Notes: generated by a model not told the origin, from the sequence alone. A stretch of 21,811 nt of DNA from a virus (IMGVR_UViG_3300000571_000003:1-21811), one strand, 5' to 3'. Positions 10,416 to 15,900 are shown, counted from the stretch's first letter. Numbers and translations are program-made.

Positions 10416-11039
10416 TTATTCCACAGTTTTTTTCATAGGGGGTCTTCCACGACGAACCTTTTTCTCTCCATCTTGGTCAACATAAGCCTCATTTGCCTCT
10501 ATTGGTTCTGGTTGTACACCCAAAACCTTATTTACATCAATATTTTCACTATTTTCGTTACTTACATCATTTTTTTCTTCTACAGAATCCTCAACTTGTT
10601 GTTTGTTCTTCTCTTCATGAACCTTAGTTATCCCCTTAAGAACTGATTCTATAACACCTGGAAGCATCTCTTTTACCCTTGCAGAGGCTAAATCATCTAT
10701 TAATTTGTTCATTTGAGGCGTTAATTGAACATTTTTTGCTGATGATTTCATGTTTTCAACATGTCCATATTTTATCTCTTGAATTATATGTCCAGGTTCA
10801 GTTTCCTGTCTATTATAAGCATATGGATCTTTTTGAACTTCCTCAACACATATAAAGTCTCTATCAAATGCTGGATGATTAATCATCATATCAATCTGTT
10901 CCTGTTGATTTATTATAGCAATACCATCCTGAAACTTTACATAAATACCGCTAACCGGTTCACGACCTACTATTGCAGATCCTGGAATACCTGGTCTTAA
11001 AACTACACGTAAATTACTTGATTTTGAAACAAACTTCAT
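10416..11039 (-). CDS. Hypothetical phage protein with acidic tail and terminal RRGRPP (AT-hook-like) motif
   Basis: ORF track; position downstream of the capsid genes. Confidence 0.75.
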   Translation of the reverse strand: MKFVSKSSNLRVVLRPGIPGSAIVGREPVSGIYVKFQDGIAIINQQEQIDMMINHPAFDRDFICVEEVQKDPYAYNRQETEPGHIIQEIKYGHVENMKSSAKNVQLTPQMNKLIDDLASARVKEMLPGVIESVLKGITKVHEEKNKQQVEDSVEEKNDVSNENSENIDVNKVLGVQPEPIEANEAYVDQDGEKKVRRGRPPMKKTVE

Positions 11040-11065: not shown

Positions 11066-11101
11066 AAAGAAGGGGGTACAGAAAAATACCCCCCCTTTTT
11101 T
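11066..11101 (-). terminator. Putative intrinsic terminator after the head genes
   Basis: GGGGGTA/TACCCCC stem followed by TTCTTT on the - strand; A/T tract on the other side. Confidence 0.65.
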
Positions 11102-11105
11102 ATTC

Positions 11106-11807
11106 CTACTCAATAATACCAGAAATACGAACGAAATTACTCGTAGAGTCAGTAAGAGTAGCAGCGTCTTTAACAAGAACAATAATGTCCTCATCAATAC
11201 CACCAGTTATCTTACCTTCACCATTTGCAAAACGAATCGTAGTCTCTGTTGTATCAACAGAAAGCGCTCCATAAAGCTGTGTTTCTGTTGTTTTCTTTCG
11301 CTTCCAAATTTGGACACTATCTACCGCTGCTGTTCCCATATTTACAGCATAAACAATCTCCTGAAGATGAACTCTGTGATCACTAGGAGCATCAAATTCT
11401 CTTTTCGGAGAGAGGCACGTAGCAATCTGAAGCGACGCAGACGTATCCTGTAACACATTCCAGATAGTACCACCATTTTCAGCCGTTGCTGAAGTAATAG
11501 CACCATCTAAAAGTGTAGATGCACTCGCTTTTGAACGAAGAGCATCAAGGATCTTCGCTTCCCAACGTCCTGTTGCATTAATCTGATCAACAACAGCTCC
11601 ATAGGTTGTATACGTTGCAAAGGCAACCGTATCTGTCGTTGTACTTCCAACGAGAACAATGTTTGTAGCAGTTGTAACTGTTACCGAAGTAGCAGTCTCT
11701 GTACCGAGCTTACGAAGACGAATAGCAACAGGACCATCAGTTCCTTTCTGAAGAACTGTTCCTGAAGCCGCTGCTTGACGTACAAGCAATGAATCTAAAC
11801 TTGCCAT
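11106..11807 (-). CDS. Putative virion structural (head decoration/cement-like) protein, 233 aa
   Basis: A/T/V-rich composition, first structural-looking gene after the MCP, followed by a terminator; function is inferred. Confidence 0.6.
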   Translation of the reverse strand: MASLDSLLVRQAAASGTVLQKGTDGPVAIRLRKLGTETATSVTVTTATNIVLVGSTTTDTVAFATYTTYGAVVDQINATGRWEAKILDALRSKASASTLLDGAITSATAENGGTIWNVLQDTSASLQIATCLSPKREFDAPSDHRVHLQEIVYAVNMGTAAVDSVQIWKRKKTTETQLYGALSVDTTETTIRFANGEGKITGGIDEDIIVLVKDAATLTDSTSNFVRISGIIE

Positions 11808-11828
11808 ATATATCGTTGATTAACTTTT

Positions 11829-12430
11829 AAACCGGCAATAACCCGTGCCATTTCGGGGGTAGGAATAAAACCCTACCGGAGAGAGAAGGAGCTAGATCTC
11901 TATATTTAAGATAAATTCAAATTCTTAAATATTCTTGATATTATTTTGGTAAATTCTTCATATCCGTGAGCACTTTTCATCTTATTACACGTAGAGCAGC
12001 ACGGCAAAACATTACCTACCTCATAACCGATAGAACTATCTATTCTGTCAACACCCATTGTGGGTGAATTTATTCCACAGTAGTGACATTTACTAGAAAC
12101 CAACACAGATAAGGTGTCTACAGATATACTAAATGCCAATTTTCTTAATCTAGCATTCTTTGTATAAACATAATATCTACCCCTCACTGTCTCCCTTCTG
12201 TATCTGTTAACCCTTATTTTTTGACAGTCTTTACAAATACTTTTCCTAGAGTTTTTACTGTGACTTTTATTTAATGGAAAGAATTCACGTTCTTTATATT
12301 CGTCACATACCCGACAATGCAATCTTTCCTTTAACTTTTTTTCCATAATACAGAGATCTAGCTCCTTCTTTTTGTGATTTATTGTCCCACCCCTCCGTAG
12401 GACATTCCTAGCTCAACGAGAGACTAGGAA
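11829..12430 (-). ncRNA. Unassigned structured RNA between the MCP and the next gene, with an HNH ORF in one stem-loop
   Basis: Hairpins at 12405-12430, 12383-12404, 11858-11877 and 11829-11857, plus an 18-bp perfect inverted repeat at 12352-12369/11884-11901. Manual pairing only. Confidence 0.5.
11906..12346 (-). CDS. Zn-binding HNH-type (His-Me finger) endonuclease, 146 aa
   Basis: CxxC...CxxC N-terminus; CHYCG...GVDRIDSSIGY...NVLPCCSTCNKMK. Confidence 0.8.
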   Translation of the reverse strand: MEKKLKERLHCRVCDEYKEREFFPLNKSHSKNSRKSICKDCQKIRVNRYRRETVRGRYYVYTKNARLRKLAFSISVDTLSVLVSSKCHYCGINSPTMGVDRIDSSIGYEVGNVLPCCSTCNKMKSAHGYEEFTKIISRIFKNLNLS

Positions 12431-12444
12431 AAACAAGCTGTATT

Positions 12445-12993
12445 CTACGACGTGACCCCTTTTAAAAGGGCATGTTTAGCGCTCTGCGCTCTCTGCAAAC
12501 CTACTTCACTAAGATATTGATCAACAATACCGTCTGCGTCTGGCGCTTGGATGTTGGTCTGAAGTTGCGTATCGCGATTATTCATATAGCGATAGGCAAA
12601 ACATTCCATATCAAGCATAAACGCATAACCGGCATAATCTTCGACAAACAATGGATTATGAACAATGTTCACTGTTCCAAATGCTGTCTGCCATTGGCTG
12701 ATCTTCATACCGTATGTGGTGTCCAATGGTTTTGTGAGAATCTGTCCACGGGCGATTTCATTGATTGCCTGCAAGACGACACCGCCTGCAAAAAGCATCT
12801 TTGTATCATTACCGTAGGTAAATCCTTCACGTAGGAACGTGTTCAAATCAGGAGCAGTCAATGGACCGCCTTGGTTCTGAACATACGAGTTACCACCCTC
12901 GATGAACTCTAGCATACCGCCAGTGGAACGTCGTGGATGGCTCTGTGTTCCTGTGTCTGAATTTTTTTCACTGAACCAGAATGCACGTTCAAT
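12445..12993 (-). CDS. MCP exon 6 (IERAFWF... to stop)
   Basis: The track ORF starts at TTG 12996, whose G is the intron-terminal G; there is no independent start. Confidence 0.88.
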   Translation of the reverse strand: MERAFWFSEKNSDTGTQSHPRRSTGGMLEFIEGGNSYVQNQGGPLTAPDLNTFLREGFTYGNDTKMLFAGGVVLQAINEIARGQILTKPLDTTYGMKISQWQTAFGTVNIVHNPLFVEDYAGYAFMLDMECFAYRYMNNRDTQLQTNIQAPDADGIVDQYLSEVGLQRAQSAKHALLKGVTS

Positions 12994-15900
12994 CAATTTT
13001 GTTATTACCCATTAAGGGTAGGTTGATCATTTCTGTCAACCTCTCTATGTCGCCATAGAGTTCAGACTATATCATTATCCATTTTAATGAACTTCCCTCC
13101 AACCCTATCTCTGCTATTCGCAAAAATAGACATCTTCTGTTTTGTTTCATCTGTTATGGATATACCTCGTTTAGTCGTTGAACCTGGAAATAAAACCTTA
13201 TATTCTTCAAGTCTATTTTGCTTTCTTCCTATATTGAAGTATAGACCGTTTTCTATAAAGCTTTTCTTATTAAACGTAAATTTAGCGAAAATCTTACCTG
13301 ACTTTAATATCTCTCTAGTGATTACTCCAACCCTTATACCATTATTTTGGCAGAAAGAATGAAGTTCATATACCCACAAATCACAAGCTCCTATACCTAT
13401 CTTTAGATCACATACTTTATGACCATTATAGATATGTTCTCTTGTTTTAGATACATACCCTTCACTGTCGAGTAATCCAGATATTAATTCTCTTTGTAGA
13501 ACTTTATCCCACTCAGAGAAGTCTATTGGAAGATTCTTTCTATTATGAGTGATTTCTTGAAGTATATTGCAAAACTTCACGTCACTCAATCTTGTAGAGA
13601 ACACCTTCTTATTAGCCTTAGTAAGTCTATTCTCCTCACCAATACTAACATTATTCTCACTTAACTTTTCAAGATTACTAACTGTCTTCTTTACAAAATC
13701 ATGGTCTATCGCTTGTAACATAAATGTTCTTTTGTCAGAACATATCGACCCGTCTCCTAAAAAGACTCCTAATATATACGCTAAATTTTTGTTCATATTT
13801 CCTTGGCTGCGGATTGTCCCCACTAATTCATTGTTGCTCTTTGGCAGAATTAGATACTTGGGAGTTTCCCGCAATTAAGAGTTATTTAATTATGATGTTA
13901 CCACCATAATGGACACTATTCTATCCAAAGCGTGTTCTGTTCCCTTCTTTGCTCTCTGGTAAGGAAGCATTATTGTTACATTCCATTAAAGGAATGGCAT
14001 AGTCATTTCTGCTATGCTCTACGTGTCTCCATCGTAGATCGGACTATATCATCTCCCATAGGGAGTTTAGCGTATAGTCTCTGGGGATTTAAGCACGCTT
14101 TAACAGTTTTAATTGTTCATATATCTCATGATCCCTTTCTATATAAGGGACATTTTTATATACTGCCGATCTTCTATTAAGAAACTCTTTTACAAGAGCT
14201 ACTTGTTCTTTTTTCGTTACAGTATATTCACTAATGAGATCAATGAACTTCTTTATTCGTTCAAATCCATTTACTTCCACTACCCAACTTTCTCTCCACC
14301 CTTTTTTTGATGGACGATATTTTATGTAGTGAGTAACATTGAACGATTTTAACTGTTCTGATAGATAATCTATGGTTTTTTTATCCGTGTTAGCGATAAC
14401 GACACTTGGTCTATAAGTATCTTTATAATGAGGCTGTCTTTTATCAGTCCTCTTCCAAAGACCTATATAACCTTCTCCATCAAAAAAACCTGCTATCCAT
14501 CCTATCGTACTTAGCTTTCCTGCATGATTGTCTCTATCCATAACATTATTACCTAAGAAGTAATTATGGCTTAACGAGATGTTCCAGCATATGGCTAAAT
14601 TTTACAAGGACCATTCTCTTAATCCTTTCCTCCGTAGAGGTTGGCTTCCTTCTCAGTATTACTCAAGGCAATAGTTGTCTTGAAAATCTGTTACAATCTT
14701 GACATCATTTTTAATGTCTGATAAGATTACCTTATCACTCATATTCTCATATGAGGAGCGACTATATCTTCACTAAACCTTAGTGTTCGACGTATAGTCT
14801 GTGAGAATTTAACTTAACTATATCTATGAATATCAACAAAACATGCAAATTGTGCTCTCAACCTTTTGAAACTAATTTTAACAATAAAATTTTTTGTTCT
14901 AATAAGTGTAAGGATGAATGCTGTAAGTTTTTTCCACGGCGGGTGTCAGATGAGAAAAAATGTATTATCTGTGATAATATATTTACTCCCAAAAGAGAGA
15001 GTACAAATCTATGCTCTAGAAAATGTATAGACATATCCTATAACAATAAACGTCCCAGAAAAACCGATAAGAGATATCATGAAACGTTAGCGATAAAGAA
15101 AAAATCATTAAATAAAGAACAATTAGAAATAATCTATGGTTCTATATTGGGTGATGGATTCTTATCACTACAAACAGACGGTTTCCACCGCTTATCTTTA
15201 TGTCATTCTGAGAAACAATTAGACTATTTAAAGTTCAAGATGTCTAAATTATCTATTATATTTAGACAGAAAGAACCTAATAGATTTGTAAATCCAGAAC
15301 ACCTATATAAAGATTACATCATGAAAGAGAAAGTTCAGTATCATGCTCATTCTATATCCCATCCTTCTTTAACTAATCTTTACGGAATGTGTTATAGAAA
15401 TAAGAGACAAATGATAGACAGAAGATTTTTAAATCTTATGTCTGAAACTTCTCTTCTTATTTGGTTTTTAGATGATGGATGTTTAGATAAAAGAAATAGA
15501 AATTCTATATTATGCACTAATTCTTTTTCTATTTCTGAAGTATCTGCTATAAAGAAGTGGCTTTGGCAAAGATTTAAACTTACTGCCAAAATCAGAACAT
15601 CTTCCGGATATCCAATCATCTCATTCTCTGTGGAAGAAACTCGTAACCTTGTTGATATTTTGAGGCAAAGCCCCATTTTCAATGAACTTCCTGATTGTAT
15701 GCTATATAAGCTTACAATCAGACCATATAATTAAGTTATCTTTTCTGCTGATTGACCCTATTCATAGAATTTTCAGGGTTCGCCGGTAGGTCGCCCCAGC
15801 CCGGTATCCTATCTATGACTTAACAGGTTATCCCAGCATATAGTCGAATTTTACTACACCCAGATTGGTTGTTTCAAAGTGTAGTTTGTTTGGGCAGATG

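Follow-up and report, generated by a model that had tools for sequence, protein, structure and literature searches.

A two-pseudoknot RNA family preceding a probable capsid accessory gene of uncultured phages, with one copy split by an endonuclease-like cassette

The DNA considered here, which we call the window, comprises the first 21.8 kb (21,811 nucleotides, nt; IMGVR_UViG_3300000571_000003:1-21811) of an 86.5-kb record of an uncultured virus. Downstream of the last exon of its SU10-type major capsid gene, and ahead of a gene for a protein of 233 amino acids (aa), positions 11829-12430 specify a structured RNA on the minus strand, the strand on which all feature coordinates are read below. 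This RNA is an interrupted copy of a conserved motif composed of two H-type pseudoknots, PK-A and PK-B, separated by a hairpin of variable length, H4. It represents a well-supported RNA family not described before, most likely of a known type, the cis-acting leader, and its interruption in the window is unusual. In the reading that we favor, and to which we give about even chances as a whole, the motif acts in cis as a leader that sets the translation or the stability of the downstream gene, and the window copy additionally holds an HNH-like cassette in helix S2 of PK-A.

The RNA fold and its family

In the window, a 651-nt stretch folds at z = -5.0 relative to shuffled sequences, and its predicted fold comprises the hairpins H1 and H2, a 23-base-pair (bp) stem around an open reading frame (ORF), H4 and a CCCG/CGGG hairpin. 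A preliminary description of the region had listed these helices together with a GGCA/UGCC pairing that would complete a pseudoknot with CCCG/CGGG; all of them are present in the sequence and are backed by covariation in relatives. The helix that has to be redrawn is H2: its core, S1 (GUCC at 12403-12400 with GGAC at 12387-12384), is real and occurs at the level of the family, whereas its 8-bp form is specific to the window, the three inner pairs being replaced across the family by helix S2. The latter is the bridge over the insertion that had been suspected between the H2 loop and a downstream CUCUCC. In S2, CGGAGGGGUG (12397-12388) pairs with CAC (12376-12374) and CUCUCCG (11883-11877), all of the ten pairs being standard or G-U, and the homologous pairs covary in relatives, where they show 4-6 pair types. 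Forcing S2 costs 2.6 kcal/mol over the pseudoknot-free minimum-free-energy (MFE) fold. In PK-B, helix S3 joins CCCG (11857-11854) to CGGG (11845-11842), and S4 joins GGCA (11849-11846) to UGCC (11837-11834). Minus the insert, the window copy is thus an 85-nt motif of PK-A, the variable H4 and PK-B, which is exactly the length of the family covariance model, R1. The 5' half of PK-A has a guanine-plus-cytosine (GC) content of 53%, as against 35% for the window.

Relatives were collected by a search with the capsid exon, which first gave 29 viral-contig loci; a second viral-contig scan and a metagenome-contig scan brought the total to 142 loci (L numbers below), many of which overlap the first 29. 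In at least 17 of these 29, only 118-197 nt separate the capsid gene from the homologue of the 233-aa gene, and no endonuclease gene intervenes. Model R1 finds 121 copies in the 142 loci at E <=1.8e-4, about 94 of them unique. Most of these either follow the capsid gene immediately or are found some 850 nt farther downstream; a few come after an inserted endonuclease gene. Five relatives of 88-102 kb, rated 99-100% complete by CheckV, carry the motif at the capsid-downstream locus only, and the genome of the window has one copy, the split one.

The consensus of PK-A is a 4-bp S1 of the form N-U-C-S / S-G-A-N that is crossed by S2, in that the 12-nt loop of S1 pairs over 9-10 bp with the stretch that comes after the A-rich linker AAAUCA. 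H4 is free in both sequence and length, and the gap between S2b and S3a ranges from 11 to about 90 nt in relatives. PK-B follows the consensus CCCG-A(N3-4)-S4a-CGGG-UNAU-S4b (in a more degenerate form, YCCG-A...A-CGGG-U-N-A-U), with an S4 of 4-6 bp that covaries. The order of helices given by covariation is S1a-S2a-S1b-S2b-H4-S3a-S4a-S3b-S4b, with no hairpin between the two strands of S2.

The two-pseudoknot structure was evaluated in a first alignment, made with MAFFT, of 30 uninterrupted relatives. There, 92.4% of the cells are paired as against 66% in shuffles, double changes occur in 24 of the 30 pairs, and the covariation score is 0.686 as against 0.176 in shuffles (none of 500 reaches the observed value) and at most 0.175 in slid controls. 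The capsid-downstream regions of relatives hence contain covarying structure, as expected of the conserved structured RNA proposed at the outset. In a set of 65 distinct sequences aligned to the model, the score of the nested helices is 0.886 as against 0.208, and a mutual-information analysis that assumes no structure draws its top-ranked pairs from S1, S2, H4, S3 and S4. Comparison of the relatives in these separate analyses therefore shows all five helices to be supported by covariation. Among the individual pairs, the outer pair of S1 occurs as G-C, U-A, C-G and A-U and its inner pair as C-G or G-C; S3 is nearly invariant, with variants G-C to C-G, U-G, C-G and U-A, and S4 covaries. About 20 nucleotides in loops and junctions are nearly invariant, and conservation is poor in the flanks of the motif. 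Pairs of G with U are confined to the sense strand, and the capsid-gene strand carries every one of the 121 model matches, which argues that the structure is read from the mRNA strand. Two further pairing schemes were discarded: a GGGA/UCCC pairing of PK-A to PK-B, whose flanking column does not covary, and a role of S2 as a mimic of a Shine-Dalgarno (SD):anti-SD duplex, which holds in a subset only, since S2 covaries freely.

In 63 of the 94 unique copies, S1a is preceded, at a distance of no more than 4 nt, by a hairpin with 5 bp or more. H1 is the window version of this hairpin, and it is kept between the window and L034 in the alignment. The H1 loops of the window (12405-12430) and of L014, L047, L049, L112, L130 and L135 share a common word, CAUUGAG, CGUUGAG or CAUCGAG, and the stems of those hairpins covary (CCUAG, CUUAA, CCUAA). 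H1 may therefore be a conserved fourth element in one subgroup.

The family is uncatalogued, in that it is without a counterpart in Rfam and the searchable literature, the unnamed IMG/VR candidates of PMC10690425 lying outside the comparison; that catalogue of structured RNAs from IMG/VR holds 8,495 unnamed candidates. The Rfam 15 scans include the models of the pistol, twister, hammerhead, hepatitis delta virus (HDV) and hatchet ribozymes, of transfer-messenger RNA (tmRNA), RNase P, int-alpA and Mu-gpT-DE, and of riboswitches. At the gathering score they found, in the window and 17 relatives, group I introns elsewhere and nothing at the motif. At E up to 10, the window and the uninterrupted relatives gave chance-level matches to small nucleolar RNAs (snoRNAs) and small RNAs (sRNAs) only, in keeping with the initial observation that signatures of hammerhead, twister, pistol, tmRNA and RNase P are missing. 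ARAGORN likewise found 0 tRNA or tmRNA genes in the window. A degenerate pattern of the motif occurs in 19 viral contigs and at 4 places in 185,579 prokaryote species genomes; the 4 prokaryote matches score no more than 14.9 bits with R1 and were rejected as chance.

Table 1. Features of the capsid-downstream region of the window
Feature	Position	Strand	Remarks
SU10-type major capsid gene, last exon	12445..12996	-	PF17236 positions 120-292 of 292, E 1.9e-28
H1, variable 5' hairpin (UUCCUAG/CUAGGAA) adjoining the motif	12405..12430	-	12430-12424 with 12411-12405
PK-A, 5' half (S1a GUCC, L1 UA, S2a CGGAGGGGUG, S1b GGAC, linker AAUAAAU, CAC of S2b)	12374..12403	-	
Inserted cassette (unpaired A-run, 5' stem arm to 12347, ORF, 3' arm 11906-11884)	11884..12373	-	490 nt
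S2b, distal 7 nt CUCUCCG, partner of the S2a loop across the insertion	11877..11883	-	
H4, hairpin of variable length (GGUAGG/CCUACC)	11859..11876	-	all 6 modelled pairs covary
PK-B, H-type pseudoknot, loops AAAU and UUAU	11834..11857	-	S3 CCCG/CGGG and S4 GGCA/UGCC
AU-rich spacer to the downstream AUG, 23% GC, hairpin-free in the centroid fold	11808..11833	-	26 nt, AUG at 11807
Downstream 233-aa gene accompanied by the motif	11106..11807	-	all-beta jelly-roll model
Terminator-like GC-rich hairpin closing the capsid gene / downstream gene unit	11072..11093	.	A-runs and T-runs on either side

The endonuclease-like cassette in helix S2

The preliminary description had counted the long stem among the helices of the RNA. 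Instead, this stem and the ORF that it encloses belong to a separately acquired endonuclease cassette. Without 12373-11884, the window copy becomes colinear with uninterrupted relatives across the junction of CAC with CUCUCCG. Model R1 matches its two halves separately, at 28.1 bits over H4 and PK-B (11831-11893, E 6e-6) and at 12.3 bits over the PK-A core (12374-12390). Of the nearest relatives by capsid (86-88% identity) whose sequence extends beyond the capsid stop, L096-L100 are uninterrupted and L101 has a cassette in H4. The 85-nt composite, the colinearity, the split model matches and the uninterrupted relatives together identify the insert as a cassette, and alignment with these relatives shows it to be inserted inside the 3' strand of PK-A, that is, in helix S2. 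For its boundaries there was no near-identical second copy to go by, the closest other homologue of the window endonuclease having 36% identity. Public groundwater metagenome runs contain the window DNA, and the runs that hold it are probably the source samples; their contigs yielded neither an empty-site allele nor joints.

The long stem has 23 bp in the MFE fold, with its arms within 12338-12369 and 11884-11915, and corresponds to an inverted repeat of 21-23 bp. It encloses an ORF of 146 aa (11906-12346, minus strand), the AUG of which comes right after the 5' arm and the stop codon of which lies at the 3' arm. The product matches PHROG families of endonuclease VII/HNH type at E-values of 6e-23 to 3e-11 (phrog_1035, 6e-23; phrog_3118, 3.5e-12) and has no Pfam HNH match. 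Two of its PHROG families are annotated as Srd anti-sigma factor and sigma-70 decoy. By-eye comparison places the arginine of a VDRID sequence at the usual position of the catalytic histidine of HNH/endonuclease VII proteins. Since DR appears in place of the catalytic histidine and a Pfam HNH match is missing, the endonuclease activity of the cassette is uncertain. A (L/V/I)DR.. sequence at the catalytic-histidine position was also seen by eye in the cassettes of L003, L004, L026, L101, L122, L127 and L168.

Endonuclease genes occur in or beside the motif at about a dozen loci, and those of the relatives are only distantly related (30-41% identity). Besides the position in S2, cassettes are found upstream of PK-A (L036, L037, L060, L067, L075, L127 and L168, with a remnant in L045) and inside the H4 loop (L101 and probably L156), which makes three kinds of position, and their presence is sporadic among close relatives. 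At 8 of 10 cassette loci the ORF is bracketed by the strongest inverted repeat, of 19-32 nt and 84-96% complementary, with arms 407-642 nt apart. There are at least four unrelated closing-stem sequences among the cassettes; such brackets in 8 of 10 loci, with unrelated stems, make the closing stem a recurrent property of these cassettes.

We propose that in the window the 3' strand of S2 was invaded by a free-standing homing-endonuclease cassette of HNH-like type. Its terminal inverted repeat would extrude the ORF as a third junction arm, such that the halves of the leader could still pair. With the start codon of the endonuclease at the top of the long stem, its translation is probably low. 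The long stem has an AAGGAG in its 5' arm, which was considered as a sequestered SD sequence and rejected, as it is 15 nt from the AUG and the genes of the window lack such sites. A group I intron was likewise rejected for the stretch: the RF00028 match lies at 13043-13200, there is nothing in 11808-12444, and the sequences flanking the ORF are the leader motif.

The downstream gene and competing explanations

The partner of the motif is the gene that follows it. An ORF of at least 120 aa lies downstream in 87 unique copies, and every one of these precedes a gene of the M[ASG]SL.. type; the 7 further unique copies have too little or no such downstream sequence. The distance from the motif to the AUG is 14-37 nt in 84 of these 87 (median 24), and the spacer is AU-rich and variable. 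The window copy, with 26 nt to the AUG of a gene of the M[AS]SLDS.. family, falls in this range. Conversely, a model match is located no more than 90 nt ahead of 89 of 100 unique genes of the 233-aa family, and a further 4 are accompanied by split or variant copies. Where the gene occurs as tandem paralogues, each usually has its own motif, the H1-like hairpin included. Duplications of the whole module of H1-like hairpin, motif and gene were observed in L014 (4714-6311), L023 (4674-6216), L062, L106, L108, L135 and L172. In L077, with a capsid protein 67% identical, and in distant capsid relatives, both the 233-aa gene and the motif are absent, and the capsid gene is followed by a GC-rich hairpin and then by the next conserved gene. 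The own copies of the paralogues and this joint absence indicate that motif and gene form one module between the capsid gene and the terminator. Judged by this distribution, the RNA is the leader of the 233-aa gene and not a 3' element of the capsid gene. The original suggestion of an RNA acting on the capsid transcript is thus not supported, as the motif tracks the 233-aa gene, is repeated with each tandem paralogue, and is absent where that gene is absent despite the presence of a capsid gene.

In the window, the capsid gene ends with the stop codon TAG at 12447-12445 (minus strand). No terminator lies between it and the downstream gene, and one, a GC-rich hairpin, follows the latter. As the preliminary description had stated for its hairpins, the minus strand from the capsid stop to the next AUG has no GC-rich hairpin with a U-tract, so that the test for an intrinsic terminator failed there, and no sigma-70 promoter was found in front of the motif. 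The hairpin after the downstream gene (11072-11093) has A-runs and T-runs at both flanks and could stop transcription both ways where the downstream gene adjoins the next one (10416-11039). In L009 and L012, a GC-rich stretch with possible hairpins (GGAAC..GGUUC and GGUAGCAGA..UCUGCUAC) comes after the stop codon of the downstream gene, at about L009:5440-5530, before the next gene. No SD sequence precedes any gene of the window, the leaders being AU-rich (..ATATAT ATG), which suggests a host with SD-independent initiation, for example one of the Bacteroidota. On the other side, directly upstream of the last capsid exon, is a group I intron core (RF00028, 13043-13200, minus strand, 42.8 bits, the match being truncated by the range searched), which was the sole match in a search of cultured-phage DNA. 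ORFs of LAGLIDADG type lie upstream of the same exon at 13062-13874 and 14089-14541, and the relatives L014 and L026 have full group I intron matches in the same capsid gene.

The 233-aa protein belongs to no Pfam, PHROG or NCBIfam family. Its AlphaFold2 model (predicted local distance difference test, pLDDT, 84.6) is an all-beta jelly-roll, the fold matches of which are generic (Foldseek template modeling, TM, score at most 0.39; VIA Z at most 7.9) and include phage turret and cement proteins at Z 6-8. From its position and this generic fold, it is probably a capsid accessory protein.

We favor the reading of the motif as a leader because its distance to the AUG is tightly kept, the spacer is AU-rich, SD sites are lacking and the association is with a single gene. 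The RNA would share a transcript with the capsid gene and reach to within 14-37 nt of the downstream AUG, marking the 5' edge of an AU-rich, unstructured landing zone for the ribosome in a phage without SD sequences. In this position it could set the amount of capsid accessory protein made from the polycistronic mRNA of the capsid gene. One possible route is the binding of a protein, with autogenous control of the kind known from T4 gene 32; another is that the motif holds the landing zone open and protects the 5' side of the cistron. Whereas the fold, its strand, its module partner and the fixed distance to the AUG are shown by the comparison of sequences, the control of downstream translation or stability is what we infer from them.

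Several points weigh against the leader reading. None of the sequencing runs with window DNA is an RNA run, and co-transcription, processing and effects on translation are all deduced from DNA. Cultured relatives of the capsid protein have at most 30% identity in a protein search, too little to point to a host. Strongly conserved unpaired nucleotides together with a peripheral stem that tolerates variation would be just as usual in a ribozyme or a riboswitch. An S2 of 9-10 bp with an L1 of 2-3 nt is sterically tight for a classical H-type knot, and the three-dimensional arrangement of PK-A is accordingly uncertain. The function of the downstream protein is a guess from its position and the generic jelly-roll fold of its model. 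Finally, six second paralogues of one subclade lack the motif, which hence is not indispensable for expression of the family. These motif-less paralogues (L046, L121, L128, L129, L132 and L133) come after a 40-nt AU-rich spacer.

A bolder interpretation would see in the motif a new catalytic or ligand- or protein-sensing class of RNA that controls the accessory protein, and in the cassettes elements that have evolved a splicing-free mode of invasion by means of their own closing stem, around which the helix or loop that they enter can form again; we regard this as unlikely, though not far-fetched. Taken by itself, the idea of a new self-cleaving ribozyme, or of a site for a host RNase, that cuts the polycistronic RNA and leaves the downstream cistron with a defined, structured 5' end appears rather improbable. 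Several features of the motif would suit it: the roughly 20 near-invariant loop and junction nucleotides stand beside covarying helices and a peripheral hairpin of variable length, two pseudoknots are packed within about 80 nt, the motif is located between cistrons of a late operon, and these phages are already rich in catalytic RNA. Yet no Rfam ribozyme model matches the uninterrupted copies even at E = 10, the flanks of the motif show little conservation, and the helix order misfits the pistol and HDV-like topologies as generally described. The HDV-like ribozymes have the nested double pseudoknot P1-P2-P3-P3'-P1'-P4-P4'-P2', from which the order of the motif, S1a-S2a-S1b-S2b-H4-S3a-S4a-S3b-S4b, differs, and this candidate was rejected. 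The pistol ribozyme is similar to the motif in that it too has a short hairpin, the loop of which pairs with a strand located beyond an A-rich linker, and then a hairpin of variable form; however, the motif lacks a P2 bracketing the pseudoknot strand and a conserved G-U site, its pairing is of 9-10 bp rather than 6, and the Rfam pistol model is unmatched. A processing role of the kind envisaged has been proposed for bacterial and phage-associated ribozymes (PMC6765202).

The other alternatives fare worse. A riboswitch-like sensor, in which ligand- or ion-dependent folding of PK-B 14-37 nt from the AUG gates the access of the ribosome, has in our estimate a small chance. Among the aptamers of translational riboswitches, a compact H-type pseudoknot whose loop nucleotides are conserved is a typical form, and PK-B resembles it; in 18 of the 87 copies the spacer is 15-16 nt, which, given the general footprint of a ribosome, brings PK-B within reach of one at the AUG. 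Against this, the motif accompanies one structural gene family only and never metabolic or transport genes, it matches no Rfam riboswitch, and there is no conserved alternative pairing with the start region, a match of GGCA to AUGGCA in the window not covarying with S4.

The chance is slim that the motif is a 3'-end element of the capsid mRNA, either a stabilizer or a terminator without a U-tract. In most relatives its start is 17-70 nt downstream of the capsid stop, and pseudoknots can block exonucleases, as this one might. However, second copies come after the first downstream gene rather than the capsid gene, in L077 and the distant relatives an ordinary GC-rich hairpin, without the motif, comes at the end of the capsid gene, the distance to the capsid stop varies from <20 to >800 nt while that to the next AUG is tight, and there is no U-tract. 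That the structure is owned by the endonuclease cassette, as a regulatory RNA or as a recognition site, is very improbable: cassettes do cluster at the motif, at about a dozen loci, and its conserved DNA would presumably suit a homing enzyme as a target, but at least 17 of the first 29 relatives, like most model matches overall, have the complete motif in a neighborhood free of endonuclease genes, and the cassettes have unrelated stems and differing insertion points. Both of these last explanations are, in our view, largely ruled out by the distribution of the motif.

The motif adds a well-supported family with a complex fold to the short list of phage late-gene RNAs. Its target is clear, namely one virion gene in the polycistronic capsid mRNA of phages without SD sequences, and it could thus offer a handle on the ratios of structural proteins. 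The split copy amounts to a natural experiment, in which a selfish gene interrupts a helix strand of a functional RNA and no intron is involved. If the leader still works, this would be a route for homing endonucleases to colonize non-coding RNAs. The insertion points also mark those parts of the fold that tolerate an insertion.

Comparison with known systems

The translational operator of T4 gene 32 consists of a 5' pseudoknot followed by an unstructured AU-rich leader. The motif has this feature, a pseudoknot upstream of an unstructured AU-rich leader, and shares with the operator the setting of a phage mRNA in which an H-type pseudoknot lies tens of nucleotides before the AUG and is followed by an AU-rich spacer rich in UUAA and UAAA. 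It differs in having two pseudoknots plus hairpins and an all-beta, virion-type protein downstream, and the likeness is one of architecture, with no similarity of sequence. The T4 operator is cited in PMC10690425.

For the cassette, a parallel is offered by T4, where the translation of homing-endonuclease genes and of the decoration gene soc is controlled by RNA hairpins (PMC2988022). As in the T4-type genes of I-TevI, I-TevII, I-TevIII, segB and mobE, the start region of the endonuclease lies in a stable RNA helix and the gene would be co-transcribed with an essential late or host gene. Unlike those hairpins, the helix of the cassette is long-range, its arms being 407-642 nt apart, encloses the whole ORF, would rejoin the halves of an RNA and covers no SD site. 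ORFs are also found in peripheral loops of group I introns, and the 23S rRNA of bacteria has intervening sequences that are excised by RNase III. In these, too, an insert is extruded by a closing stem and the fold of the host RNA is kept. The window cassette is distinguished from them by the lack of an intron core, so that no splicing is expected, by a host RNA that is a small mRNA leader, and by the interruption of a helix strand rather than a loop.

Among catalogued phage RNAs, Mu-gpT-DE is a motif found near structural genes. Together with int-alpA (RF02996), it resembles the present family in being a conserved structured phage RNA of late regions. The family is set apart from both by its fold, with two H-type pseudoknots, and by the phage clade in which it occurs, and neither of the two was found by the Rfam 15 scans of the window and of uninterrupted relatives, even at E = 10.
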